Shown here piece by piece: positions 1-21,897 of a DNA stretch of 64,000 nucleotides. A model generated the notes under the pieces. That model saw only the letters and a program-made list of their open reading frames with translations, made no database searches and was not told where the DNA came from. This DNA comes from a virus: the IMG/VR virus record IMGVR_UViG_3300009709_000003, positions 64,001 through 128,000 of that record; one strand, given 5' to 3'. Within the stretch, counting starts at the first letter, position 1, and every line of letters starts with the position of its first letter. Position numbers and translations under genes: made by a program.

Positions 1-1190
1 CACATGGACCCATCTCCATTAATTTTCGAAATGGCACCTGCCACCATGCCGGCACGGTCTTTATTCTTGGGTGTAGACTGGAAAAGTGTCTGATTAAAAA
101 CCTTATCCCCCACCTTAGCAGACGCTTCCGCTTTACCATTTTCAGTCCTTATAATCACAGAGTCATGACTGAAAGTGGACGGATCAGGTTCCGGTTCGTC
201 TTTAATGCGATTTTTATCAGAAAGAGGCTCGCTATAGGTATTTTCTTCACGTTTCAGAGCATGTTCCGCCGCATCGTCAACTTGTTTCTGTTCGTATGGT
301 TTTAACTTAAAAGGCTCGTTGCCCATCCCAGTACCAGATTCCAGGAATTCGGCCATAGTTTCATCAGTGGCATTGTTAACCCATTTACGCAACACAAGTA
401 GATCGTTCAAAGTGTTGTCGTCTGCGTCGTTTTTAGTGGCCGCTTCTAGTTCTTGTTCTACAGACTCTAAAGCAACCTCTTTGGCATTATCAGGGCTAGC
501 GTTATTATCTCGCATTCTGTCATGAAGATCAGCGAGTAGATCACGCATCGTTAAAGTTTTTTTTTGACCTTGGATTTTAGCCCCACCGTTGCCGCCATAC
601 CCAGCGAAATCATTCTCCAACTTCATGGCTTCAGAAGACATGCTCATAATGTCTTTGGCTACTTCTGGGTCAAGACCTGGCTGTTTGGCCAAGGTCTCTA
701 GTTGTTTACGAGTCTCTGACATCATCTTTTGTTTTTGGTCAGGCGGTAGATTTCCACTCATTTGAGCCATTGACTGAGAAAACAAAGTAGATGCTCGACC
801 CAATACGGCATTTTGCATTGGATTATCATTACGTCCAAGCCGAATGATCTTACGAGTGTTAGCTACAATTTGGGGATGCAATTTAACATTTGTCTCTAAA
901 ACTTCTTGTGCCGGGCTATTCAATCCCGCAGTGTAGGCTTGATAGGCAACTCCTACCAATTCGGACCATGATTCCATCGGAAATTTGCTAGATTCCGCAG
1001 TCAACACATTACTGGCTACAGTTAAAGGAACAGAATCAACAAGGATCGTGGCAGACTTACCATTATCCGACAAAGCAGTTGCGAGTGTGCCGGCTTTGAT
1101 TTTAAATGCACGTTTAAGACGTTTTCCGTCTCCAACGTTGGTTGTGGTGTCGTGCGCTACGACTACTTTGTCACCAAATACGTATGTCAT
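1..1190 (-). CDS. Hypothetical protein, partial (runs off window start)
   Basis: Manual translation from ATG at 1190 (MTYVFGDKVVVAHDTT...GQKKTLTMRDLLADLHDRM...) stays open as far as I translated; probably absent from the ORF track because it has no stop in the window. Confidence 0.75.
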   Translation of the reverse strand, partial: MTYVFGDKVVVAHDTTTNVGDGKRLKRAFKIKAGTLATALSDNGKSATILVDSVPLTVASNVLTAESSKFPMESWSELVGVAYQAYTAGLNSPAQEVLETNVKLHPQIVANTRKIIRLGRNDNPMQNAVLGRASTLFSQSMAQMSGNLPPDQKQKMMSETRKQLETLAKQPGLDPEVAKDIMSMSSEAMKLENDFAGYGGNGGAKIQGQKKTLTMRDLLADLHDRMRDNNASPDNAKEVALESVEQELEAATKNDADDNTLNDLLVLRKWVNNATDETMAEFLESGTGMGNEPFKLKPYEQKQVDDAAEHALKREENTYSEPLSDKNRIKDEPEPDPSTFSHDSVIIRTENGKAEASAKVGDKVFNQTLFQSTPKNKDRAGMVAGAISKINGDGSM

Positions 1191-1616: not shown

Positions 1617-1713
1617 GTATTACTCCTACGATTCTATAGTAAACCTTAAAATAAATACGGCTATATACTACTTTATATTAATACTAGTGTATGATACTTA
1701 CCTACACTATGAT

Positions 1714-1731
1714 CTGGCAGGACTCTTGCAA
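1714..1731 (+). promoter_or_regulatory. Sigma-54-type -24/-12 promoter
   Basis: CTGGCAGGACTCTTGCAA (GG-N10-GC), intergenic, upstream of RBS AGGA and ATG 1767. Confidence 0.7.
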
Positions 1732-1766
1732 TGTTTTCAGTACTAAATTCAACCACAGGACTACCG

Positions 1767-2462
1767 ATGTATCCGTCTTTGAACAAACCGCTTCCTCCGA
1801 TTCAGGGATATCTTACCTCTGCACAAAACACCGGTATGACTCTAGAGGCCATGGCTGCCATTGCCGCAGCAATCAGTTTTGGCGTGAATTTGGCAGTTCT
1901 TGCTTACGGGTTGGCCGCATTTCAATCTCACATTGATCAGAAGTTGCAGGATGTGGATAACCATCTTGGTGTAGTTGAAACTCGTTTACATGAAGACATG
2001 GACGTCAACGTTATCAATCTGAAAATTCACGTATTGAAACGTGACGTAGACCCTGCTTTTGCGGTGCAAATTGCAAAGTTGGTATCTAAGTATGCAAAAA
2101 TCTATCAGCGTGACCCAGACTTGATTTTGGCAGTCATTAAGGTGGAATCGGGTTTCAATCCAAATGCAGTTAGTGAAGTTGGCGCTACCGGACTGATGCA
2201 ACTTATGCCGCACTGGATTAAAATTTTTGGCTTGACTGGCGATCTTACCGATCCAGAAGTGTCTATTCGTTATGGTATGCAAGTTTTGAACTTCTATTCT
2301 GGTATGTATAGTGGAAATGTCAAACTCGGCCTCATTGCTTACAATGCCGGACCGGGGTATGTGAATTCAACAGAAAAGCCAAACCCGGAATACGCTAACA
2401 AAGTAATAAGTGTTTACAACCAACTGAAAGAGCTTAACATTGGTAGCAGTAGCAACAACTGA
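1767..2462 (+). CDS. Lytic transglycosylase (SLT domain) with N-terminal hydrophobic helix
   Basis: LILAVIKVESGFNPNAVSEVGATGLMQLMP and AYNAGPG are SLT motifs; start moved to 1767 on RBS and promoter evidence. Confidence 0.9.
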   Translation: MYPSLNKPLPPIQGYLTSAQNTGMTLEAMAAIAAAISFGVNLAVLAYGLAAFQSHIDQKLQDVDNHLGVVETRLHEDMDVNVINLKIHVLKRDVDPAFAVQIAKLVSKYAKIYQRDPDLILAVIKVESGFNPNAVSEVGATGLMQLMPHWIKIFGLTGDLTDPEVSIRYGMQVLNFYSGMYSGNVKLGLIAYNAGPGYVNSTEKPNPEYANKVISVYNQLKELNIGSSSNN

Positions 2463-2814
2463 AGATGTATTTACGTACAAGATGGAACCCGCTCCCACGG
2501 TTAATACCGCTAAGAGTGGCATTCCATCTATCGTAAATTGTTCCGTAATCATTAACCAATTTAATGATGTTGATGCATACCAGATAGCCGTATCTTTTGA
2601 TGAACAAATGTTTATGTTTTTTACTTCCAGAGAAAATACTATGGTCACTATTCTTTTAGATGGTGCACCTTTAGTGTACAAACATTGGAAGGACACAAAG
2701 TGGAGTAGGCATTCTGGCCGTGGCTATGACTATTTTAAGAATAAACTCCCTAGTGCGATTTGCGATAAAGTACAGCACATCATTTTAACCCGATTTAAGG
2801 AAAGTGCAGAATGA
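2440..2814 (+). CDS. Hypothetical protein
   Basis: ORF coupled to neighbours; start uncertain. Confidence 0.55.
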   Translation: MVAVATTEDVFTYKMEPAPTVNTAKSGIPSIVNCSVIINQFNDVDAYQIAVSFDEQMFMFFTSRENTMVTILLDGAPLVYKHWKDTKWSRHSGRGYDYFKNKLPSAICDKVQHIILTRFKESAE

Positions 2815-3101
2815 ATTCTAAATTGTTTATTGTTTCTTTGGTTCTTGGTTTGTCTGCTGTTGGTTGCGTGTCCAAGTCCACCGGCAGCACCAAAAACGCT
2901 AATGATGTTGGTCACATTGCACAGGATGCAAATACTCTACAAAAGATCGCGTGCCGCGTGCAACTCGATCTGATGAGTGATGTCTGTGCGCCTGCAGCAA
3001 CTGGGAAAGTTACTGAACTTTGTGTCAAGGTTGATGGTAAACTTGGTTTGTGTGCACCCGTTTTGGTGGTGGACCCAAACACCGTTTCTCCGTCTCCATG
3101 A
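2811..3101 (+). CDS. Putative lipoprotein
   Basis: Signal peptide ending in lipobox-like SAVG-C; ATGA overlap with the upstream gene. Confidence 0.6.
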   Translation: MNSKLFIVSLVLGLSAVGCVSKSTGSTKNANDVGHIAQDANTLQKIACRVQLDLMSDVCAPAATGKVTELCVKVDGKLGLCAPVLVVDPNTVSPSP

Positions 3102-3249
3102 TTCAATTCATTTGCGTCCTACATAATAAAACGCACGTCTTTAGCATGAGTGATATCATTCTTGCTAAAGACGAAGCGTCTGCCGCTAAATTATATAGAG
3201 ACTTACTACCAGATAGTGCGCAACATCTATCTATCAGCGCACACAGACT

Positions 3250-3972
3250 TTAGGCTAAAATTGCAGCGTACATACTGTCTCGACGGGCTCTGTTAATCTC
3301 TGTAGCTTTTTCGACTGGGCCACGCACAATACCATCAGAAAAACCAAGTGCAGCTGCTTCAGTGGTAGAGAAATACGCATCTACTTTGCTGTCGAAGTTG
3401 TCACGCAAAAATTTAGCAATTTCTTCTTCTGAAGAATTGGCGAAGCGTCCTTGTGATCGAAGTCTAGCTGTGTAAATGCGTTCCATCATTTTGTTGCTAC
3501 GTTGTAGAGACGCATAGGCACTTTCTGCTTCACCCTTAGCAGTACCTTCAAAACCCCAATATCCATAGTGAATCATGTATTCTGTTGGAGGACGCATCAC
3601 AAACTTGTCAGCTGCAAGCGGAATAATACTTGTCATACTGCGACAATGCTTTAAACCAATAATTGTAGTAGGATTAGGACTATTTAGAAGAGCACCAAAC
3701 ATTTGCATGCCATCTTCCCAATTCCCACCTTCAGATCCCAAATAAATCGTAATAGGTTTAGTAGGATCCAGTTTAGCAAGAAAACACATGTTTTGTTCAA
3801 AACGATCAGCCATGGCGAAAGTTACGCCATGCTCAACACCTACTTCTGCAATGTGGTCTTCACGCTCATCGCTGCCCACATAAATAGTGAATGCGTCTGC
3901 ATCGATACGGCAATCCTGCCAAGTCCAAAGTCTATTTTCGAAAGTTGAGTACCTAGATTTTGGTGTCGCCAT
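3250..3972 (-). CDS. clpP: ClpP-family serine protease
   Basis: IYLGSEGG, CRSM (catalytic Ser), MIHY (His), VDAYFSTTEAAALGFSD (Asp) follow the ClpP pattern. Confidence 0.85.
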   Translation of the reverse strand: MATPKSRYSTFENRLWTWQDCRIDADAFTIYVGSDEREDHIAEVGVEHGVTFAMADRFEQNMCFLAKLDPTKPITIYLGSEGGNWEDGMQMFGALLNSPNPTTIIGLKHCRSMTSIIPLAADKFVMRPPTEYMIHYGYWGFEGTAKGEAESAYASLQRSNKMMERIYTARLRSQGRFANSSEEEIAKFLRDNFDSKVDAYFSTTEAAALGFSDGIVRGPVEKATEINRARRDSMYAAILA

Positions 3973-4093
3973 AATTGCATACCTTTATACTATATGTGAG
4001 CCATATCGGCGCATCTATTATGTAATCATATCTAATGGGTGCTTCGAGATACCAATCAAAGAACAACGCCATATTAAAATCTGAGGTATAACA

Positions 4094-5008
4094 ATGACAC
4101 AAAACGTGAAAGCTCTTTGCATAGATGGTGGCGGTATACGAGGTTTGATACCACTGGTAAGCCTTGCTTATTTGGAACAAAAAACCGGGAAACCATGCAA
4201 TCAATTGTTTAATTATATTGGTGGTACATCTACGGGAGGCATTATAGCCCTGGGTCTTGCCGCTGGTCTACCAGCAACCACATTAACCGCTCTATATGTG
4301 CAGCAGGGTGCAAAAATATTCTCAAGTTCGTGGTGGTACAAGTTAACCAACCTGGGAAACTTTGCCGGACCTAAATATCCAGCGAGTGGTATAGAGAGTG
4401 TTTTGAAAGTGCAATTTAACAATCAAACCACTAAAGATCTAAAGACCAATGCTATGGTGGTTTCTTACAATATATCAAATCATACTGTTAAATTGTTTAA
4501 CAGCTGGGAAGACCAAACATATTATATTAGAGATCTGTGCAGAGCGACAACTGCCGCGCCTACATATTTTCCACCCGCCAATATCGGCAACACTAACGGT
4601 ACGGACAAGTCTTGGTACATAGATGGCGGCTTGGTAGCAAACAATCCAAGTATGTGTTTGGTTACTGAGATCTGCAAAAGAGAACAAACCATACCAGCCA
4701 ATATATCAATGCTTTCATTAGGTACTGGTCTCAATGAGGGTTCAATCGATGGTACAGTGGCAAGTAAATGGGGAGAACTCCCTTGGGCTTCTAATGTTAT
4801 AGACGTTGGAATGAATGGCACACAGGATTTGGCAGACACACAAGCATCTTTGGTGCTTAGTCGATATGTACGAGTGCAACCCCCAAATGGTTTAGCCTCT
4901 CAATCTATGGACGACGTTTCCACCGGATCCTTAAAGACATTGCAAGATATAGGTACACGCATGGTCGCACTGTGTGGTGATAGTATGCTTGCATTGGTGA
5001 ACTCATGA
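4094..5008 (+). CDS. Patatin-like phospholipase
   Basis: DGGGIRG oxyanion motif, GTSTG nucleophile, AAPTYF, DGGLVANNP. Confidence 0.93.
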   Translation: MTQNVKALCIDGGGIRGLIPLVSLAYLEQKTGKPCNQLFNYIGGTSTGGIIALGLAAGLPATTLTALYVQQGAKIFSSSWWYKLTNLGNFAGPKYPASGIESVLKVQFNNQTTKDLKTNAMVVSYNISNHTVKLFNSWEDQTYYIRDLCRATTAAPTYFPPANIGNTNGTDKSWYIDGGLVANNPSMCLVTEICKREQTIPANISMLSLGTGLNEGSIDGTVASKWGELPWASNVIDVGMNGTQDLADTQASLVLSRYVRVQPPNGLASQSMDDVSTGSLKTLQDIGTRMVALCGDSMLALVNS

Positions 5009-5340
5009 GTAACGTATTAGACGCTTGGCTTCGACAGCTTGCTGAAACAATTGCTAAGTTGAAAAACACGCCTTTCCCTACATCTGTAGTGGGATTACGC
5101 GTAAAATTTTATACAGAAACTGAGCAATATGTCATCTGCAGAGTTGCAAACGCGGCGCAAGTTATGCCATCTTTAAGGGCTAACGTTCGCCCTGAGCCGT
5201 ATGACAAATTGCTTGAAGGTGCTGGGCCAGAAGGGGTACGTATGCGTCTAGAGTATATTCTTGATTCTGATTCGGACGCTAATCTAGTGCAGGCTGATGA
5301 TATGGCACAGTCCACACGCTGGACCAATTTTAAAATCTAA
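5005..5340 (+). CDS. Hypothetical protein
   Basis: ATGA-coupled to the patatin gene. Confidence 0.6.
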   Translation: MSNVLDAWLRQLAETIAKLKNTPFPTSVVGLRVKFYTETEQYVICRVANAAQVMPSLRANVRPEPYDKLLEGAGPEGVRMRLEYILDSDSDANLVQADDMAQSTRWTNFKI

Positions 5341-7287
5341 TCAGGTATTAAAAGCAGCAAGTTGCGCCGCAAATGCCTGACCCCAGGCCGTCCATGTAAG
5401 CGTCATACCCACTTGCGATCCACCATTAGCGGCTGATGTATCCACCAACAAATTGGGTGGGGTAGCTTGATGCAGGCACCACGCGGTGTATGGCACACCG
5501 TTTGTGTTGCACCATTGCATGAGTTGTGTGCATTCTGCAACCGTCATATATAGACCAGTGCTGTCTGCTGTGTTTACAGCGGGGCCAAACTCTTCGATGT
5601 AAACTGGAATCTTTGCCGCTGCTGCTTCAAACAACGTAGGCCAATCGGTAGCGTGGTTGTAAGCGTGACAAGCATACAAAACCTGAGTATCCTGCAATGG
5701 ATTAGCTGCCCAATAGCTAACATTACGTGCATATTCGTCAACACCAGCTACAACGATAACATGCTTAACAGAATTAACTTGGGCCTCCATTTGTCGAATT
5801 TGAGTAATGCACTGTTGCACTGCATTCCTATACGTCAAAACAGCAGCAGTTTGAGTCGGATCAGACTCATTAGCCGTGCCGTTATTGCGTGGTTCATTAC
5901 ACAGACCAATCATCAATCCTTGCGCATTTGGAAATGAGGACGCAATATATGCGGCCAAAGGCGCTGTAGACATTGTGGGTTGTCCACCTACAGATGGAGA
6001 CAGACTACTGTCGATCCAAAAAGAAGCATTAACTACGGCACCCTTAGAGAGGATGTAAGAAATAACCGATTTAACTGTGGTCCAATAGGACTGATCACCC
6101 AAAACATTCTCAGCAGTTGTGTAGGTCTCCAACAAATATCGGAAAAAGTTCACCCCGTTTGCCATCGCGAAATCGACACGACGCATGATTTCTTGAGCTG
6201 AGACAGCGTAAGTCAAACCAGTCGCCGAATTATCGCCACGCAAATCGCATATATTAACACCTTTACCAAGCCACGCCTTACCGTTTCCATCCACCAATCC
6301 AACACCGCTAACAGTAACAGAAGGTTGTCCAGAAATAGCCGCAACTGGCGCAGTGTCAGGAGTAGGATTGGGCACACTTGTGGGAGGATTCGGGTTAACG
6401 ATCAAAGCAATATTGTTAAGTTCCACTGGGTTCAAAGTGCCAGCCGTTGAGTTTTGAAACAACACATTTGTAAAAGTAGAAAAGGCAGGAAGTCCCATGT
6501 CGGTCCACAAAACCGTCATAGTAGTTTTTGTGGCTGGTGGTACAATAACTTTATTTGCCACCTGAGTCTGATCTGTATACAATGCCACAGAAACAGATTG
6601 CTTACCATCCGACAAAACATCAAACTGAACACCCAAATAATTTTGAGAAGCCACAGGAGCGTCATTCATGTTATTAAGACTGACAGCGGTATATGGACCC
6701 ATAGTGGCTTTAATAGCCTTGGTGCCCATAGTGTCACTTACAAATGCTTCAGTGGCCCAAGTATAATCTCGCCAAGAGTTTTGGAGACCGTTCTGATATA
6801 AATAATACAATGAACGAGTGGTTGGTGATGTCGTGGTCGGTGCAGTGGTTGTGGGAGCAACTGTTGTAGGAGTTGCCGTTACAGGGGCCGTGGTTGTGGG
6901 CGCAACTGTTGTAGGAGTTGCCGTTACAGGGGCCGTGGTTGTGGGCGCAACTGTTGTAGGAGTTGCCGTTACAGGGGCCGTGGTTGTGGGCGCAACAGTA
7001 ACAGGAGCCATAGTTACGGGTGCTGCAGTCGTAGGAGCGGCAGTAACTGGAGCCGATGTAGTAGGTGCGGTCGTCGTAGGAGCCGTTGTAACTGGTGCCG
7101 TAGTGGTCGGTGCGGTCGTCGTAGGTGCCGTGGTGACAGGAGCAGTGGCTCCCCAAGCGTAAGAAGAATCCGGCACAAAAACTAAACTAGTACCGTTAAC
7201 TGTTACGAGCCAACCGTTTGGCACCTGCAAACGCCAAACATTACCTACTACTCCAGATACTTGTTCCCAAACAGCTGCAACGGTCAT
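5341..7287 (-). CDS. GH5-like (cellulase family) glycoside hydrolase with Thr/Pro linker and probable carbohydrate-binding domain
   Basis: GVNICD, FFRY, CNEP (acid/base), HAY, IEEFG (nucleophile), YTAW; long TTAP repeats. Confidence 0.85.
   Translation of the reverse strand: MTVAAVWEQVSGVVGNVWRLQVPNGWLVTVNGTSLVFVPDSSYAWGATAPVTTAPTTTAPTTTAPVTTAPTTTAPTTSAPVTAAPTTAAPVTMAPVTVAPTTTAPVTATPTTVAPTTTAPVTATPTTVAPTTTAPVTATPTTVAPTTTAPTTTSPTTRSLYYLYQNGLQNSWRDYTWATEAFVSDTMGTKAIKATMGPYTAVSLNNMNDAPVASQNYLGVQFDVLSDGKQSVSVALYTDQTQVANKVIVPPATKTTMTVLWTDMGLPAFSTFTNVLFQNSTAGTLNPVELNNIALIVNPNPPTSVPNPTPDTAPVAAISGQPSVTVSGVGLVDGNGKAWLGKGVNICDLRGDNSATGLTYAVSAQEIMRRVDFAMANGVNFFRYLLETYTTAENVLGDQSYWTTVKSVISYILSKGAVVNASFWIDSSLSPSVGGQPTMSTAPLAAYIASSFPNAQGLMIGLCNEPRNNGTANESDPTQTAAVLTYRNAVQQCITQIRQMEAQVNSVKHVIVVAGVDEYARNVSYWAANPLQDTQVLYACHAYNHATDWPTLFEAAAAKIPVYIEEFGPAVNTADSTGLYMTVAECTQLMQWCNTNGVPYTAWCLHQATPPNLLVDTSAANGGSQVGMTLTWTAWGQAFAAQLAAFNT
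6845..6996. repeat. 45-bp tandem repeat (about 3.4 copies) encoding the APTTTAPVTATPTTV linker
   Basis: gtggttgtgggcgcaactgttgtaggagttgccgttacaggggcc at 6845, 6890, 6935, partial at 6980. Confidence 0.9.
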
Positions 7288-7355
7288 AAAATCTCCAGTG
7301 TTAAGCTACTGGTTATTCGTATATATATGCCACTGTAGCTTTATGCCCGGCCAGA

Positions 7356-7646
7356 TTACTTACCGAATAGACGTCTGTATTGACGACCAGTTTTAGCATA
7401 TGCACGAATATGATTCTTCGTGTAGTAGTACTTGCCATCACGAGGACTATCCCACTCATTCCATGGGGATAACTCTACTTCGGCCTTATACACCAAATCG
7501 TCTTCTGTGTCTACAAGTTTAGAGATCTCGTGTAGTAACGCTCGTTGCCGGGATCTTTCCTTACCGGCGCGTTCCCTGGTGTAAGGACGCACAGACTCAG
7601 CAGTAGTGACTCCAGTAACCGGTGTATGCTTTTTAGACCTGCTCAT
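7356..7646 (-). CDS. Small basic hypothetical protein
   Basis: MSRSKKHTPV...DGKYY-type basic ORF in a run of minus-strand genes. Confidence 0.65.
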   Translation of the reverse strand: MSRSKKHTPVTGVTTAESVRPYTRERAGKERSRQRALLHEISKLVDTEDDLVYKAEVELSPWNEWDSPRDGKYYYTKNHIRAYAKTGRQYRRLFGK

Positions 7647-7651
7647 AAATA

Positions 7652-7936
7652 TTAGTAAACGTTGCGTTTTAGACGGGCATGTCCAGGAATAACTTGATAT
7701 TCTGGATCGTTATGCTTCGGGCTGAAAATCCTAAATCCTGGCAAAACCTTTTCATTTGGTCGAAGCTGATCTGCTGGCACTTCTGGAATGTCAATATTAA
7801 CATCCATATACGCGTTACCTGCACCCTTTTGGGCACGAATCCATTCAGCAGCTTCAGGAGCAGCCTGCCACAGTCTTGTTCTGCCAGTTTTCGTATTCAA
7901 AATGGTGCGCACAATATTCCAACATTCATTTACCAT
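7652..7936 (-). CDS. Hypothetical protein
   Basis: AGGAG RBS upstream. Confidence 0.65.
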   Translation of the reverse strand: MVNECWNIVRTILNTKTGRTRLWQAAPEAAEWIRAQKGAGNAYMDVNIDIPEVPADQLRPNEKVLPGFRIFSPKHNDPEYQVIPGHARLKRNVY

Positions 7937-7952
7937 AATACACTCCTGTTAA

Positions 7953-8543
7953 TTAGAGAATTTTATTTACTTTCTCTAGCTTAATAACATATTCTTCATC
8001 ATCGACTTTTAGAACTCTGGGATTATAAATCAGATTACTTAGTTCATCAATCTCATTCTTAATTGAATCCACAGTGTTCTTTGAACTATCTTGCATAATG
8101 CGTAATACGTCACGTAGGGTATGAAGACGAGTGTATAGCTTGGTATATGTCGTCGTGGCATTATGGTCTACACCATCTGCAAAAGAACGTTTTTTCTGTT
8201 CCTCATACGTTTTTTGTAACGTTCGGTAAGCCTGCTTACTTTGGTGCAGCAAGCTTTTAATACGGCGCAATTTTCGATCGTTCTTTGTAACGTTATTCTC
8301 CACACCCATAAACGTATCCTTAATCAAAGAGCCAACATAGACAGGATCTTTGATAGTAACAGAATTTTTCGATATATAACCATTCCAGAAAGCGCCCTTC
8401 GAGTTGAAGATTTTAAATTGAGCCCCATTCTCAGACGACGTAGCTGTGTATTCAATAATCGAACTGTACACAGGATTATGCTGCGCTGTAACGGTATACT
8501 CAACATTAGCAAGAACAATTTTAACGGTATTTTCTTTAGTCAT
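7953..8543 (-). CDS. Hypothetical coiled-coil protein
   Basis: 196-aa ORF. Confidence 0.6.
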   Translation of the reverse strand: MTKENTVKIVLANVEYTVTAQHNPVYSSIIEYTATSSENGAQFKIFNSKGAFWNGYISKNSVTIKDPVYVGSLIKDTFMGVENNVTKNDRKLRRIKSLLHQSKQAYRTLQKTYEEQKKRSFADGVDHNATTTYTKLYTRLHTLRDVLRIMQDSSKNTVDSIKNEIDELSNLIYNPRVLKVDDEEYVIKLEKVNKIL

Positions 8544-8594
8544 GTTGTACTATAAGTATTAGAACCTAGAACAGTTTATTATTTATAAATACGT

Positions 8595-9107
8595 ATGCAC
8601 GAAGTAGTCAAAACAAGTAAATTTGTCAACGATGTGAATCGAATATTTGCACATCATATTAGTAAATTCGGGGGCATTAAAGCGGATGTAGTAAAAGATG
8701 CTCGTCAAGCGGCATGGGTGGCTGCTCTGTCTAAGATGCAAACCTGGGATCCCAACAAAGGTGCTAAACCTGGCACATATGTATACCGCGCTATACAAGA
8801 CGCTGTTACAACTACTATCATACAATGGAAAAGCCGAGGTCTTAATAAGGACATACGCAATAAAAGCGTAGATGAGGTCATAACTTACCTTGAAGAAAAT
8901 GCTTGTGATCACCACATTGAGATCTACGCGGCACGCGATTGTCGAGTACGACTAAACAAACTTACACCAGACCAAATAGCATTGATAAATCGCCATCTTG
9001 TAGAGGGTGTAACCACTACATGTATTGGTGCACAAGGTAAAAACAACCGAACTACTGTTTGGCGACAAGTACAAGTTATCATCAATACCCTAATGAACGT
9101 TAGATAA
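8595..9107 (+). CDS. Sigma-70-family (ECF-like) RNA polymerase sigma factor
   Basis: Region 2-like DARQAAWVAALSKMQTWDPNKGAKPGTYVYRAIQ; region 4-like LNKLTPDQIALI...RTTVWRQ. Confidence 0.75.
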   Translation: MHEVVKTSKFVNDVNRIFAHHISKFGGIKADVVKDARQAAWVAALSKMQTWDPNKGAKPGTYVYRAIQDAVTTTIIQWKSRGLNKDIRNKSVDEVITYLEENACDHHIEIYAARDCRVRLNKLTPDQIALINRHLVEGVTTTCIGAQGKNNRTTVWRQVQVIINTLMNVR

Positions 9108-15359: not shown

Positions 15360-15521
15360 TTAGAAATTCAGGCGTGGCTGGGCATTGGGGTTGATGTTCT
15401 TCTTTTGGAGACGGCCATGAACGGTCGCCTTTGACTGGACCATCTGGGTGGAAGATGTAGGCGTAGGTGGGAGGATTTCGATTTTGCCGCCGCGTGAAAG
15501 AAATTGCTCGATCGTTTCCAT
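15360..15521 (-). CDS. 53-aa protein with SutA-like RNA polymerase-binding motif (not in ORF track)
   Basis: METIEQFLSRGGKIEILPP; AGGAG RBS; own promoter. Confidence 0.6.
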   Translation of the reverse strand: METIEQFLSRGGKIEILPPTPTSSTQMVQSKATVHGRLQKKNINPNAQPRLNF

Positions 15522-15555
15522 GTGTACTCCTGAAAGAAAAAGGTTAAGAGGGAAA

Positions 15556-15573
15556 TTGCAAAGGCGATGCCAA
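15556..15573 (-). promoter_or_regulatory. Sigma-54-type promoter cassette
   Basis: Reverse complement TTGGCATCGCCTTTGCAA followed by TTTCCCTCTTAAC. Confidence 0.82.
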
Positions 15574-15578
15574 TCACT

Positions 15579-16381: not shown

Positions 16382-16433
16382 AGAAGGTATGGGGAGTTAA
16401 GCACAGGTCGCAAGACTGGCACGATTCCTGCAA
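16361..16433 (+). promoter_or_regulatory. Two tandem sigma-54-type promoters (16361-16378 and 16416-16433)
   Basis: CTGGCATCGCTTTTGCAA and CTGGCACGATTCCTGCAA. Confidence 0.75.
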
Positions 16434-16466
16434 TTTTAAAAGTAGACACCAAACAGGAGAAGACAG

Positions 16467-16712
16467 ATGGGTAAACTCGAAGCCATCGCTCGCCTTGAAG
16501 AGATCAAAGAAGAGATGCAAGCTCTGCTTTTAGAGGCCAGTCATCTGGTGCGACAATACGCCGGGGAGCGCTCCATCTCAGACAGAGCACATGCCTACTG
16601 GGTGCCACATATCGAACAGGCGCTTGAGACAACCGGTTACGACACCGACATGACGGGTACCATCAAGGAGATGGAAGAGTCAATCGAGGAAGAGCCAGCC
16701 GAAGCTGAATAA
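16467..16712 (+). CDS. Small acidic hypothetical protein
   Basis: AGGAG RBS. Confidence 0.7.
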   Translation: MGKLEAIARLEEIKEEMQALLLEASHLVRQYAGERSISDRAHAYWVPHIEQALETTGYDTDMTGTIKEMEESIEEEPAEAE

Positions 16713-16714
16713 CA

Positions 16715-16764
16715 CGGCGAAACCCCGCAGGGGGTCCTAGGGTCAGACCCTAGCTGACGAGCCG
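16715..16764 (+). ncRNA. Hammerhead ribozyme, type II
   Basis: CGGC-GAAA-CCCC(GCAG)GGGG-UC^-CUAGGGU(CAG)ACCCUAG-CUGACGA-GCCG; full core and three helices; predicted cleavage after C16736. Confidence 0.92.
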
Positions 16765-16796
16765 AGTAACAAAGTAACATACAACAAGCGGACCAA

Positions 16797-17003
16797 GTGA
16801 AGACCTACATCGTGACGGTGACGACGACAGAGATCTACGAAATTGACGCACCTAACATCCTGATGGCAGAAATGCTGAAGGACGGCATCCTGGAAGCTGA
16901 CGATATCGCGATCGAGCGAATGGTGATGGTAGACCGGTCAGTTACAATATCGACGACAGCTAAAATCGCAGATGTGGCACCAGTTTTGCAACAGAAAAAG
17001 TAA
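16797..17003 (+). CDS. Small acidic protein (KT[YF]IVT family)
   Basis: MKTYIVTVTTTEIYEIDA. Confidence 0.6.
   Translation: MKTYIVTVTTTEIYEIDAPNILMAEMLKDGILEADDIAIERMVMVDRSVTISTTAKIADVAPVLQQKK
16974..16991 (+). promoter_or_regulatory. Sigma-54-type promoter cassette
   Basis: GTGGCACCAGTTTTGCAA-CAGAAAAAGTAAC; near-identical to 17897. Confidence 0.8.
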
Positions 17004-17018
17004 CCACAGGAGAACAGC

Positions 17019-17516
17019 ATGAAGACGTTCATTGTAACACGCACCACGGTTGAGACTTTTATGATTCAAAGCGAAGACGCAGAAGGCGATATCGCGCACG
17101 GCAACATCGTCCTCGACAACGAAATGCCTACACATAGTGACACTGAAATTGTGTCGCGCGAAATGCTCGACGCGCCTGAGTACCGGGTTGTCATCATCGA
17201 AGAGAACATCGGTTGGAACGAGTTTAAGGGCGATTTTGAGAACGCGGAAGACGAAGCAGAAGCTAAGGAGGCATTCTACAAACACGGCGTTTACGGGTAT
17301 TCTGTCGAGATGCGCACTGTGGTTGACGGGCAATGGGACGACGTTGACAGTTGCTTTGGTTTCTTGGGCAACGAAAGGCAGTACATGTTGGACGTGGCAA
17401 TCGAACACATCCCAAAAGGTGTGGATGCCAAGATTTGGGAAAGTTTTTGCAATGCAGCTGAAGCTACTGAGACCAATGAAACGGTCACTGGTATTGGTGC
17501 GAGTGAAGCAGCCTAA
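17019..17516 (+). CDS. Very acidic hypothetical protein (KTFIVT N-terminus)
   Basis: AGGAG RBS; D/E-rich; VDSCFGF motif. Confidence 0.7.
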   Translation: MKTFIVTRTTVETFMIQSEDAEGDIAHGNIVLDNEMPTHSDTEIVSREMLDAPEYRVVIIEENIGWNEFKGDFENAEDEAEAKEAFYKHGVYGYSVEMRTVVDGQWDDVDSCFGFLGNERQYMLDVAIEHIPKGVDAKIWESFCNAAEATETNETVTGIGASEAA

Positions 17517-17518
17517 CA

Positions 17519-17568
17519 GGACGAAACCGCTTCGGCGGTCTGCTCGTAAAACGGGCACTGACGAGTCC
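17519..17568 (+). ncRNA. Hammerhead ribozyme, type II
   Basis: GGAC-GAAA-CCGC(UUCG)GCGG-UC^-UGCUCGU(AAA)ACGGGCA-CUGACGA-GUCC; predicted cleavage after C17540; RBS AAGGAG follows immediately. Confidence 0.92.
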
Positions 17569-17580
17569 AAGGAGAACGAC

Positions 17581-17889
17581 ATGGCAACGCAAGAGGAAAT
17601 CGAGGCAGTCCGCGACAATCTGGCAGACTATGGCCTCAGTGACGAGGTGATCTCGTTGGCGATCGACATATTTGGTGTTCATGCAGCGGATGCCCTTGAT
17701 GGCGGCGCTTATCAAGGCAAATACAATTCACTCAGCCACTATGCGTCAGAATACGTGGACGAAATTGGCCTACTCCATGGTTTGGATGACGTTATCGTCA
17801 AATATTTTGACTTTGAGTCGTATGGCCGCGATTTGGTGTCAGGTGGTGATGTAGTATACGAGAATGGCCACGTTTTTATTGCCAATTAA
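17581..17889 (+). CDS. ArdA-like antirestriction protein (short, C-terminal domains)
   Basis: YQGKYNSLSHYASEYVDE...KYFDFESYGRDLVSGGD...NGHVF resembles the ArdA C-terminus; true start 17581 from RBS. Confidence 0.7.
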   Translation: MATQEEIEAVRDNLADYGLSDEVISLAIDIFGVHAADALDGGAYQGKYNSLSHYASEYVDEIGLLHGLDDVIVKYFDFESYGRDLVSGGDVVYENGHVFIAN

Positions 17890-17896
17890 AACAAGC

Positions 17897-17914
17897 TTGG
17901 CACCAGTTTTGCAA
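17897..17914 (+). promoter_or_regulatory. Sigma-54-type promoter cassette
   Basis: TTGGCACCAGTTTTGCAA-ACAGAAAAGTAAC. Confidence 0.82.
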
Positions 17915-17939
17915 ACAGAAAAGTAACACGGGGGACAAC

Positions 17940-18203
17940 GTGAAAAAGAACGCAGCGCAACAAGCCTTGACCAACGCAGTGAACCGCGCCATCGCAAATG
18001 GAGCACCAGTGTACGAGAATCAACCCGTTGAGACGCCAAAACTCAAAACCTTTATCGTAACGCAGACCATAGTAAAGACCTTTGAAGTGCAAGAAGACGA
18101 CGCAGATAAAGCCAAAAGTGCGGTATTGACGTCCCGTTTTATTACTGGGACACAGACTGTAAACACTGTCGTAACAGAGAAGCTCGAAGGTGGCGTAATA
18201 TGA
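17940..18203 (+). CDS. Hypothetical protein with internal KTFIVT module
   Basis: GTG start, GGGGGA RBS. Confidence 0.6.
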   Translation: MKKNAAQQALTNAVNRAIANGAPVYENQPVETPKLKTFIVTQTIVKTFEVQEDDADKAKSAVLTSRFITGTQTVNTVVTEKLEGGVI

Positions 18204-18381
18204 ACATCCGAATTGGAGTTTACGTTAGTCTTTATGTGGGTCTTGGCGAACAATTCATGGACCAAGTACATACAGACTGGGCAGTAGTCCAACCTGGATT
18301 CTTTAAGAAAGAACTCCAGTAAACAAACACCTTAACCCGAAAGCCCGCCTAGTGCGGGCATCGGCATTAAGAGAGGGTAAC

Positions 18382-19743
18382 ATGCGATTTAAGGTAGGGC
18401 AAGTCATTCGTAACCTTGATTCTGTCATCCCTCAATTTAAATGGCGGATTGATAGAGTTACAGAAAACGGGTACGTAGTGACGCCCCTGATTTATAAGGA
18501 CATCTACAAAGAACGTTTTCTCTCTGCTCACGACAGATTGGTTTTGGCAGAAGGGAATGGAGACAACAAGTGACAACACTTAAACGGAAATTCCCGCGCC
18601 GGGTGTACGGTAAGCGTGAACACAACTTGATGTTGCGACAACAGGCACTCATGCCACTGACATACAAGCCTTTCGAGCAAGCGATATATAATCAAGGCTG
18701 GCTAGATGCGAAGACGGCCATAGTGGAACAAGAATTGCAGGACATTTCAAACATGTTCACTGACCTGGAAAAGGACAACAAGCAATGAATCCAATTAAAA
18801 ATTACAGTGTAACCTGCAACTGCAAGTGTAACTGCCCAAAGTGTAACAAGAGAAAGTAACATGGAAGACAAACAAGTGAACCATAAAACCCGCAAATTGA
18901 GTGACGAGTTGGAGAGAACCCCAGAATGGGGAGTGTCCACCGGATTCGAAATTCGTACTATTGAAGCCATCCGCAACTTGGAATTTAACCTGCATGAGGC
19001 GCAAAAGGCCGCTGAAGATGCACACTTTTTGCTGACAGCAGAGGTTAAACGAGCAGAATCCGCTGAAGCCCGCATTAAAGAACTAGAGTCCACGTGTATT
19101 AAAGAATTTGAAAAGGGATACGACCAGGCCCTGTCTGAAGTTGGTGTCAAATGGGACGGGAACAAATTTGTAAAGAAAAATGGGGAGTCACATGAGTAAG
19201 TCAAAACTGCTTGATAGTAAACAGAAGATCATCAACTACGTGCAAAAACGACGTGATCGTATTGGTGAGGAACGAGATCTAATAACGAGGTTTGCCGAAG
19301 TACGTAAGTTGGAAGAACAAGCCAAAATAGCACGTCGAGCCTATGAACAACGGTGTGAGGCTACACGACCAGAATTCAATGCTGCTTGGGACCGTGTCAG
19401 TATGGACGCCAAGAAATATTTGAATGCCTTGGTAGCCGGCACGCCCGTAACAGTGGATACGGATGCAGATGAGATGCGGGACAGACTTGTCAAACCTACC
19501 CTTGGTGTGGTAGAATAATCCCATAAATTTCAACTTGGAGGGCACTTGGCGGACAAAGAGTCTGACACACTGCAGTACACCAGCGCAGAGGAGATTCATT
19601 CAGACCTACAAGAAATTAGAAGGAAAATCCAGGAGATCACAGCTAAGCGGCGAGCATTTTTATCCTCGTACCTAAACAAGATTTTTACATCTAACTTAGA
19701 GGAAGAGAAAAATGAAACACAATCCATTCATAGACGCCATTAA
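18382..19743 (+). CDS. Run of small hypothetical genes (18382..18573, 18570..18788, 18861..19199, 19192..19518, 19546..19743)
   Basis: Coupled plus-strand ORFs with RBSs. Confidence 0.55.
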
Positions 19744-20104
19744 CAAGGCTTTCCCTAACATGGAGAAGATCTACGCCGAACTCGAAGAACAATTCGAACC
19801 AGGTGTGATCAGAGCGGCAGTAAAAACCTTTGGCATGGACCACGCTATCAAGGCTCTGAATCAAGGCGCATATCGAGGTAGATTTAAAAGTGTGGGCGCA
19901 TACGCAGAATCTGTGATTGCAGACCTGGCCATCCTGAACAACGACTTGTTGAAACTTTACTTTGACTACGACGCGTTCACTCGGGATCTGGGCCATGACG
20001 TCCATTTTATCGATGGGTACATTTTTGACATTGAATACGGACCTGGTATTACCTCATCAAGATCTATCATTGTGGATGACGAGGAAGACCATGAAATTCA
20101 GTGA
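19712..20104 (+). CDS. Second ArdA-like protein
   Basis: GAYRGRFKSVGAYAE...LYFDYDAFTRDL...DGYIF; paralog of 17581. Confidence 0.65.
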   Translation: MKHNPFIDAINKAFPNMEKIYAELEEQFEPGVIRAAVKTFGMDHAIKALNQGAYRGRFKSVGAYAESVIADLAILNNDLLKLYFDYDAFTRDLGHDVHFIDGYIFDIEYGPGITSSRSIIVDDEEDHEIQ

Positions 20105-20814
20105 CCTATTGGTAGGAGACGCCTTTGCTTGCCGGTTTGGGATTCTGAAGAAGGAAGGAGCCGGGCATGCTTTACACATTGACTCGCATGGGTTAAGTAG
20201 TTCAATCAACTCTGCTCATTCGGTCGTGTTTTTACCCTCCGTCAAAATCATCATGGAAAGCGAATACAAGGAGATTTTGAAAGAGTGTAAGAGAATCGGC
20301 TTGTCTATCAAGATTCAACAGTTGGTTGAGTCGTATTTAAAACGTCAAGGTGTGTTTGCTGAGACCGAACCGGTAAACATGCACTACCCTGCTCGATTAG
20401 CCGCCACGGTGGATATGATTGAAGCGATAGAACATCAACACGATGCATTATTGGCAGGTGAAACACACGATGATTTTACAGAAGAGGAAGTTCAAACGGC
20501 CTTGCAAGTTTTCAAAGACGCACTCGACATGCTTGAACTTACCCGCAAACAAATCCGATCAAAGATCTTTTAAAGGAATCCCATTTATGTCTGATTCTCC
20601 TTACAACCCCGCTCTTCTGTCTGCACAACTTGTGGCGGTAGGGCTGTCTATTCACGCTGTAGAACAACAGTATGAGGACGTAAAGAATGGTGAGATACTT
20701 GAACACCTTAGTCACGCAGAAAGGGAAGCGGCAGGTGTTGCATTTGAACTTATTCTCACAGGGTTGAATGTAAGACGATCTCAGATATCAACTATTTTGG
20801 ATGGGTGTAGGTAG
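20091..20814 (+). CDS. Two hypothetical genes (20091..20573, 20587..20814) sharing a helical module
   Basis: PARLAATVDMIEAIEHQH..E vs PALLSAQLVAVGLSIHAVEQQY..E. Confidence 0.55.
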
Positions 20815-20835: not shown

Positions 20836-20853
20836 TTGGCATAGTCATTGCAG
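20836..20853 (+). promoter_or_regulatory. Sigma-54-type promoter
   Basis: TTGGCATAGTCATTGCAG upstream of the helicase. Confidence 0.75.
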
Positions 20854-20883
20854 ATAAATCGTAACATCTGTCTGGAGTGGTCT

Positions 20884-21897
20884 ATGCAACTTCGAGATTA
20901 TCAAATTAAAGTCATCGACCAGGTAATCTCGAACATTAGGGGAGGGGACACGTCAGTTTTGATTGAATCTCCCACAGGCAGTGGAAAGACAATTATGGGG
21001 ATTGCTTTGGCCGCCAAACTCGGCAACGAACAACGTGTCGGATGGGTGGCTACACGCCGCAATCTGTTGGCGCAGGCCAAAGAGGCCCAAATGCAATGGG
21101 CACCTTCCATGAAATTCTTCCCTATCTCTGCCTTTGAGAAGTCCCCTCCCCTAGTTGACATTCTCATCATTGATGAAGCCCACCACACGGCGACAACGAG
21201 TATTTCAGACATCTTGATTCAATCTAAAGCCAAAATCGTCATCGGGTTGACTGCTACGCCCTTTCGTTCAGACGGTATGATGTTGGCGTTCAAGTCCCAG
21301 GTAAAGGGCTGTGGAATTCACACCCTCATCCAAGACGGTTGGTTGTCTCCTTTCGACCATTTTTCAATCAAAGATTGGTCACCAAAAGAAGTTGTGAACA
21401 CATATCTGAGAGAGCAAGACCGCTTTGGTAAATCCTGCATCTTTTTCCACACTCGGAAAGAGTGTCAGACAGCCATGAACCTGCTGCGTGCGGGTGGGGT
21501 AGAGTGCGAGTTGGTGACGGGAGAGAGCGACCGAGAGCGCCAACTTCATCAATTCGAGACCGGTAAGACCAAAGTGCTGGTCAACATGATGGTCCTCACT
21601 GAGGGTTTCGATGCCCCCGACTTGCAGTCTATTTTCATCCGGGATTCAAGTAAAGGTCCCACCATTCAGATGGGTGGGAGAGTGTTGCGGAAAGTGCCGG
21701 GAATCGCTGTAAAGAATATCGTCCAGAGTGTAAACACACGGATGCCGTTCACCCGGGTTGCAACGGCCAAGACGCAATATCTGTATGAAGACGATAGGTG
21801 GGTGAGTATCACCGCCAACCCACATGTTGAGAAAATGGTCAATGTCGCTCTCAGTCAGTTGCGACGCAACGTGTTGAAAAATATACGGGAGTATTAA
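20884..21897 (+). CDS. Superfamily 2 DEAH helicase (ResIII/UvsW-like)
   Basis: LRDYQ, SPTGSGKT, DEAHH, TATP, LTEGFD, QMGGRVLR. Confidence 0.92.
   Translation: MQLRDYQIKVIDQVISNIRGGDTSVLIESPTGSGKTIMGIALAAKLGNEQRVGWVATRRNLLAQAKEAQMQWAPSMKFFPISAFEKSPPLVDILIIDEAHHTATTSISDILIQSKAKIVIGLTATPFRSDGMMLAFKSQVKGCGIHTLIQDGWLSPFDHFSIKDWSPKEVVNTYLREQDRFGKSCIFFHTRKECQTAMNLLRAGGVECELVTGESDRERQLHQFETGKTKVLVNMMVLTEGFDAPDLQSIFIRDSSKGPTIQMGGRVLRKVPGIAVKNIVQSVNTRMPFTRVATAKTQYLYEDDRWVSITANPHVEKMVNVALSQLRRNVLKNIREY

Follow-up and report, generated by a model that had tools for sequence, protein, structure and literature searches.

A predicted type II hammerhead ribozyme of a compact class fills the spacer in front of an ArdA-like gene in a 160.7-kb virus genome

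In this study, we examined the junction upstream of a short ArdA-like gene in a virus record of 160,708 bp that is complete and has direct terminal repeats. Coordinates refer to the window, i.e., the whole stretch of 64,000 nucleotides that was analyzed (positions 64001 to 128000 of the record), unless a contig is named. Along the locus, a variant of a sigma-54-like motif at 16417 is followed by ORF 16467, hammerhead 1, ORF 16797, a sigma-54-like motif at 16975, ORF 17019, hammerhead 2, the ArdA-like gene, a further motif at 17898, and ORF 17940. The features needed here are the following:

16715-16764 (+), hammerhead 1, a member of the compact class, 2 nt 3' of the TAA of ORF 16467-16712
16975-16990 (+), sigma-54-like motif TGGCACCAGTTTTGCA, the nearest promoter-like element upstream of hammerhead 2
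17019-17516 (+), upstream ORF of 165 amino acids without a match to any family; 2 nt separate its TAA (17514-16) from hammerhead 2
17519-17568 (+), hammerhead 2, a predicted type II hammerhead ribozyme of the compact class; loops close stems I and III, and stem II is open
17540-17541 (+), predicted self-cleavage site GUC/U, based on sequence and established hammerhead chemistry
17541-17557 (+), stem-loop I, 7 bp with an AAA loop, the predicted 5'-terminal hairpin of the ArdA-like mRNA
17569-17574 (+), Shine-Dalgarno (SD) sequence AAGGAG, abutting the 3' strand of stem II and followed by the spacer AACGAC and the ATG at 17581
17581-17889 (+), ArdA-like gene 1 (ArdA1), 102 amino acids, C-terminal ArdA domain only, pI 4.05
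17898-17913 (+), sigma-54-like motif identical to that at 16975, just after the ArdA-like stop codon and before gene 17940
19712-20104 (+), ArdA-like paralogue 2 (ArdA2), 130 amino acids, with no ribozyme in front

An earlier note on this DNA had described GTCC (17565-68) as abutting AAGGAG, with the ATG at 17581, and was exact in both coordinates and description. Hammerhead 2 reads, in strand order, GGAC (17519-22), GAA (17523-25), stem III from A17526 to U17539 with a UUCG loop, C17 (C17540), stem I from U17541 to A17557, CUGACGA (17558-64), and GUCC (17565-68). Stem III is A-CCGC-UUCG-GCGG-U (5 bp), stem I is UGCUCGU-AAA-ACGGGCA (7 bp), and stem II has 4 bp and is closed by the pair G10.1-C11.1 (G17565-C17522). 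The core C3-U4-G5-A6-N7-G8-A9 is provided by CUGACGA at 17558-17564, and G12-A13-A14 (GAA 17523-25), A15.1-U16.1 (A17526-U17539), and the cleavage triplet G-U-C are all present, so that helices of 7, 4, and 5 bp surround the core in type II connectivity. The minimum free energy (MFE) structure predicted for 17515-17585 matches the hammerhead secondary structure exactly; in a longer, 260-nt context the MFE structure has long-range pairs in place of stem III, and the z-score of the hammerhead 2 fold is -0.99. As to a tertiary contact between stems I and II, no pseudoknot was recognizable in hammerhead 2, the best complement between loop I and the tail being 2 bp. Judged by its core, triplet, and helices, hammerhead 2 is a complete type II hammerhead for which self-cleavage is predicted.

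Rfam scans of the whole window, at the gathering threshold and with E values up to 10, missed both hammerheads. When a 111-nt stretch was searched, the RF02276 match to hammerhead 2 scored 23.1 bits, below the gathering score of 37. We therefore report the result of a descriptor that covers all three topologies with a strict core and stems of at least 4, 3, and 4 bp. In the 160,708-bp genome it matched only twice, at hammerhead 2 and hammerhead 1, and 60 dinucleotide-preserving shuffles of the genome gave a mean of 0.03 matches each. A pattern scan of IMG/VR yielded at least 119 stretches, and the descriptor found 119 complete type II hammerheads at 72 loci. From 34 of these foreign phage hammerheads, all of the compact subclass described below, we built the covariance model R1 with the window sequences excluded. 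With R1, the scores were 62.7 bits (E 9e-17) for hammerhead 2 and 60.0 bits for hammerhead 1, and nothing else in the window matched. Within its 34 sequences, both-sided changes occur at 12 of 16 pairs, while the percentage paired is true by construction, as the set was chosen by a pairing descriptor. The hammerhead identity put forward earlier is thus borne out by the full core, the two descriptor matches against 0.03 per shuffle, and the R1 score. Both hammerheads are intergenic, lie on the coding strand 2 nt past a TAA, and have a core and helices without defect. They have no helix sequences in common, which argues that they are not recent copies of each other.

The sampled hammerheads (n = 119; contigs L002 to L120) fall into two groups. 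A compact class of 58 has a stem-loop I of exactly 17 nt and a stem II of mostly 4 bp, with an A just 5' of stem II in 47 of 58, usually an A just 3' of it (35/58), and a conserved G-C and U.G topping stem-loop I. A pseudoknot of at least 4 bp between loop I and the tail occurs in 9 of these 58 compared to 48 of the 61 members of the long-loop class; such pairing with the 3' tail characterizes both the Rfam consensus and the hammerheads of Perreault et al. 2011 (PMC3088659). Hammerheads 1 and 2 fall into the compact, pseudoknot-free class, both with the rarer U-A instead of U.G atop stem I (3/34 in the sample). Hammerhead 2 shares with RF02276 the core, the cleavage triplet, and the open helix II and departs from it in the 17-nt stem-loop I, the 4-bp stem II, and the lack of the consensus pseudoknot between loop I and 3' tail; this class membership accounts for the low Rfam score of the window ribozymes. 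An SD-like motif lies 0 to 6 nt 3' of stem II in 11 of 44 compact-class cases and in 0 of 44 of the pseudoknot class, where the tail is needed for pairing. At hammerhead 2, the first two A residues of AAGGAG (17569-17574) are the "Aa" flank of the compact-class consensus, and a similar arrangement, with the SD 1 to 3 nt from stem II, is found in contigs L095 and L029. Arrays of four to six type II hammerheads, one per small-gene junction, were seen in L006, L020, L042, L056, L061, L076, and L079, and near-identical ribozyme sequences are frequent inside one array (L006, L061, and L079 among them).

The placement of these elements relative to genes is not random. In 70% of the 119 foreign hammerheads, the first nucleotide falls between -2 and +3 nt relative to an upstream stop codon, compared to 3.9% of random same-strand positions drawn from the same loci (upstream ORFs of at least 40 codons counted), and ORFs lie on both sides in 82% compared to 11% of random positions. 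In the phage type II sample, the G of a UAG stop codon is often common to the ribozyme start and the upstream ORF. On the other side, the next start codon follows the ribozyme after 1 to 62 nt, with a median of 24 nt (117 of 121 hammerheads with a downstream ORF, both window ones included), and the 12 nt between hammerhead 2 and its ATG lie at the short end of this distribution. The direct fusion of ribozyme and ribosome-binding site (RBS) emphasized in the earlier note is therefore real as a contact but not a special design: contact with the RBS is tolerated and not rare in the compact class, and the conserved junction is the upstream stop codon, not the RBS. Genes downstream of the sampled hammerheads are mostly small (median, 97 amino acids) and without a Pfam family. 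DUF932 is the commonest Pfam family in this position (3/115), and Bro-N, HNH, ParB_N, and a small terminase occur once each.

The product of the gene downstream of hammerhead 2 matches Pfam ArdA (PF07275) at 47.6 bits (cutoff, 27; E 3.5e-12), over profile positions 91 to 154 of 155 only, and PHROG 2059 ("anti-restriction protein") with an E value of 8.5e-13. Word-based searches found no close relative of ArdA1 and none of ArdA2. An exhaustive search returned 278 relatives of ArdA1, many of about 100 to 115 amino acids and many full-length at about 170. A profile built from 30 short forms aligned with residues 83 to 162 of ArdA ORF18 (PDB 2W82; E 3.7e-15), and an AlphaFold (AF2) model with a pLDDT of 95.3 had 2W82 as its top Foldseek match in the PDB (probability, 1.00; E 9e-3; TM, 0.57 to 0.60). 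The resemblance to ORF18 of Tn916 covers the sequence over 83-162, where the predicted fold may match as well, and extends to strong acidity, with 20 Asp plus Glu against 4 Lys plus Arg in the 102-amino-acid product; the window protein differs from the 165-residue 2W82 in lacking a region that matches roughly its first 80 residues. The similarity to ArdA claimed in the earlier note therefore holds by Pfam, PHROG, and the 2W82 profile match, and we regard the ORF as an ArdA homologue without roughly the N-terminal half, with a putative antirestriction role. A mechanical ORF of 250 amino acids runs from GTG 17137 to 17889 (+), the ArdA-like frame being open through the ribozyme. ATG 17581 is supported as the true start by the SD at 17569 and by homologue alignments that begin at residue 1.

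We also surveyed hammerheads at other ArdA loci. A type II hammerhead lies directly upstream of ArdA in four further cases (L087, L169, L200, and L206/L207) and directly downstream in L140 and L190. Across 80 ArdA loci we counted five hammerheads, four of which directly flank ArdA, two upstream and two downstream; assuming uniform placement and about seven junctions per locus, a rough p of ~0.03 for at least 4 of 5 makes this enrichment suggestive only. Among the four closest clusters of ArdA1 homologues, P0002 has hammerheads on both sides of the gene and P0003, P0005, and P0006 have none adjoining it. The closest homologue, in L206/L207, stands in the order S-AdoMet lyase, hammerhead, ArdA, hammerhead; L206/L207 thus carries an antirestriction pair punctuated by ribozymes. 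In L206 (3529-4692), a hammerhead at 3922-3974 is followed by a 204-amino-acid ArdA (4001-4615), a hammerhead at 4621-4675, and then the next gene.

Such neighborhoods have precedents. Prophages contain single genes and short runs of genes that are bordered by more than one hammerhead, and processing of long transcripts into gene-length mRNAs has been proposed as their role (Perreault et al. 2011, PMC3088659). In Agrobacterium tumefaciens, ardA is flanked by three hammerheads that cleave both in vitro and in E. coli, and in three Legionella strains a hammerhead immediately precedes ardA (PMC3088659). Cleavage in vivo is documented for three type II hammerheads of D. vulgaris that lie near phage-like genes (PMC8782182). 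Hammerheads number in the thousands in phages and prophages, and their purpose was still called undefined in the review by Weinberg et al. 2019 (PMC6765202). Phage hammerheads that adjoin ardA have therefore been in the literature since 2011, and the present locus is a further example. Like the clusters of Perreault et al., it has two same-strand hammerheads at consecutive junctions within an early or accessory part of a phage genome, and a gene of the ArdA family directly follows one of them. Unlike them, it belongs to a 160.7-kb virus with direct terminal repeats and not to an integrated prophage, its ArdA is a 102-amino-acid C-terminal form, the ribozyme touches the SD, and its junctions alternate with a sigma-54-like motif. 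The link to ArdA drawn in the earlier note accordingly stands as far as the gene is ArdA-like, but the association was already known and is loose, with ArdA accounting for only 1 of 115 sampled downstream genes.

The sigma-54-like motif, TGGCAC-N5-TTGCA, is enriched at gene junctions, with 19 occurrences in the window compared to 3.08 expected. Its matches span 1715 to 61360, e.g., 16362, 16975, and 17898 on the plus strand and 15557, 15811, and 16090 on the minus strand. Between 15800 and 18600, neither a sigma-70-like promoter nor a convincing terminator was found. A blastn search of 16400-20200 against GenBank phages gave no match. The sole close relative found, the 11.4-kb contig L201, is syntenic (helicase, 87% identical; ArdA2, 72% identical) and has 13 matches to the motif (1659-9076); a search with the helicase returned this one relative above 51% identity, so that conservation of hammerhead 2 is judged against a single genome. 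The positional orthologue of ArdA1 in L201 is 37% identical (E 3e-19) and is preceded by TGGCACCGGTTTTGCA and no hammerhead. Three window ORFs around hammerheads 1 and 2, including ORF 17019, have no homologue in L201.

The reverse situation is found at another junction. The L201 gene at 670-843 (-), encoding 57 amino acids, is 57% identical to window gene 15360-15521 (-) and is preceded by a type II hammerhead of 35.6 bits at L201 858-920 (-). This hammerhead starts 1 nt past a TGA stop codon, ends 5 nt before the SD of gene 670-843, and has a loop I/tail pseudoknot GGUU/AACC. At the window counterpart (15522-15578, -), the sigma-54-like TGGCATCGCCTTTGCA is present instead. Two orthologous genes thus have a hammerhead in one phage and a promoter-like motif in the other, once in each direction. 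The exchange fits the idea of a defined 5' end in the earlier note, since either element would place the start of an mRNA a short way ahead of the RBS. It may instead be due to mosaic exchange of cassettes, with no selection for a 5' end, in view of the single relative and of the unrelated genes upstream of the swapped junctions. The exchange is the one point of the locus that is new, and only modestly so. A stronger version, in which hammerhead and sigma-54-type motif are interchangeable 5'-end makers for small early genes and translation of the ArdA-like gene requires prior cleavage, appears doubtful to us; if true, it would assign phage hammerheads a definite and testable function, that of starting a message without a promoter.

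Taken together, we favor the reading that hammerhead 2 is probably a working member of the compact class that serves as gene-junction punctuation and constitutively cleaves a bicistronic transcript. ORF 17019 and the ArdA-like gene would be transcribed together, as the nearest promoter-like motif is that at 16975 and the region has no terminator. Once transcribed, the 50-nt ribozyme would fold and cut after C17540. The 3' end of the 5' product would consist of the UUCG hairpin of stem III and a final C that bears a 2',3'-cyclic phosphate, 24 nt past the stop codon, and these 24 nt should suffice for normal termination. The 3' product would begin with a 5'-OH at U17541 and carry a 40-nt leader composed of the 17-nt stem I hairpin, 11 unpaired nt, AAGGAG, and the remaining nucleotides up to the AUG. 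Cleavage would take the GGAC strand of stem II away from the ArdA-like mRNA, and the two products would be expected to separate because they are held together by the 4-bp stem II only. The outcome would resemble that of a private promoter: a separate 5' end near the RBS, and an mRNA whose decay and translation no longer depend on the upstream gene. Ribosomes that terminate at 17514-16 would presumably unwind the 5' strand of stem II and so compete with the uncut fold. Given that the 50-nt ribozyme fills the intergenic spacer from 2 nt past the stop codon to the SD, the locus offers a simple test system, and the close relative L201 provides a promoter-like motif at the equivalent place for comparison.

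It is also possible, if clearly less probable, that the ribozyme belongs to the upstream gene, as the 3' tail of a mobile or variable cassette that provides a protected 3' end in a terminator-less operon, with the contact to the ArdA RBS a matter of mere tight packing. The tight junction is indeed with the upstream stop codon, whereas the next start codon follows at 1 to 62 nt. At all three window-L201 junctions the gene upstream of the hammerhead is lineage-specific, and the downstream gene is conserved at two of the three. The arrays of gene plus hammerhead with near-identical ribozymes (e.g., L006, L079, and L061) point in the same direction. However, direct repeats or other signs of mobility are absent around 16715-17568, and hammerheads 1 and 2, with their unrelated helices, are not recent copies. 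This reading is moreover compatible with punctuation by cleavage, as one cut makes both ends.

That the ribozyme is adapted specifically to the ArdA-like gene, whether as an insulator or as a cleavage-gated switch, seems unlikely. Here, the uncut fold would block the 30S subunit, and cleavage would free the RBS and yield a decay-resistant, hairpin-capped 5'-OH leader. The footprint of the 30S subunit reaches about -20 from the AUG, so that a subunit on the ArdA RBS would cover 17561-17568 (some core residues and the entire 3' strand of stem II), and initiation and the uncut ribozyme should compete. An SD 0 to 6 nt from the ribozyme is found only in the compact class, and, as described above, other ArdA genes too have a hammerhead directly upstream (L087, L169, L200, and L206/L207). 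Yet the predicted accessibility of the SD is no higher after cleavage: partition-function folding, a model that leaves steric effects aside, gave an unpaired probability of 0.71 to 0.73 before cleavage and 0.40 to 0.69 after it. The cleavage-gated translation switch of the earlier note is therefore unsupported. The spacing argues in the same direction, as the ribozyme-to-start distance at the other hammerhead-preceded ArdA genes is 21 to 27 nt and not 12. In addition, no ribozyme precedes either the L201 orthologue of ArdA1 or the paralogue at 19712, and ArdA is just one of the 115 sampled downstream genes. RNase E is hindered by a 5'-OH, and RNase J1 degrades the 5'-OH glmS product; protection of the leader would thus vary with the host RNases, holding for RNase E-type decay and not for RNase J1. 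As for insulation, RiboJ is an engineered synthetic insulator consisting of an sTRSV-derived ribozyme and an added hairpin. By analogy, the window element also places a hammerhead between upstream sequence and RBS and is predicted to leave a short, hairpin-capped 5'-OH leader, but it is natural, whereas RiboJ was engineered and given its additional hairpin. Were cleavage needed for downstream expression, the element would represent a naturally occurring parallel to the ribozyme insulators of synthetic biology.

Two further readings are far less probable than any of these. Release by hammerheads 1 and 2 of an 804-nt RNA (16737-17540, two ORFs) that a host ligase makes into a circular or spliced RNA is highly improbable. 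A 5'-OH and a 2',3'-cyclic phosphate are the substrate ends of RtcB-type ligases, and two cuts would leave both on one fragment; however, the promoter-like motif at 16975 lies inside the fragment, and no sequence that would bring its ends together was found. Perreault et al. raised this possibility, sought such products, and found none (PMC3088659). That the motif is a relic without activity or matches the pattern by chance, as the sub-gathering Rfam score, the z-score of -0.99, and the lack of a recognizable tertiary contact might suggest, is scarcely credible against 0.03 matches per shuffled genome and two found, both intergenic, on the coding strand, 2 nt past a stop codon, and intact in core and helices.

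Elsewhere in the window, 20848-21897 (+) encodes the SF2 helicase, whose named distant homologues (43 to 48% identical) come from Planctomycetota (Alienimonas, Gemmataceae, and Planctomycetaceae), which may be a weak hint to the host group. An unusual phage cargo is encoded at 5341-7287 (-), a 647-amino-acid protein with a glycosyl hydrolase family 5 (cellulase) domain preceded by a subthreshold extensin-like match (34.5 bits; cutoff, 105).
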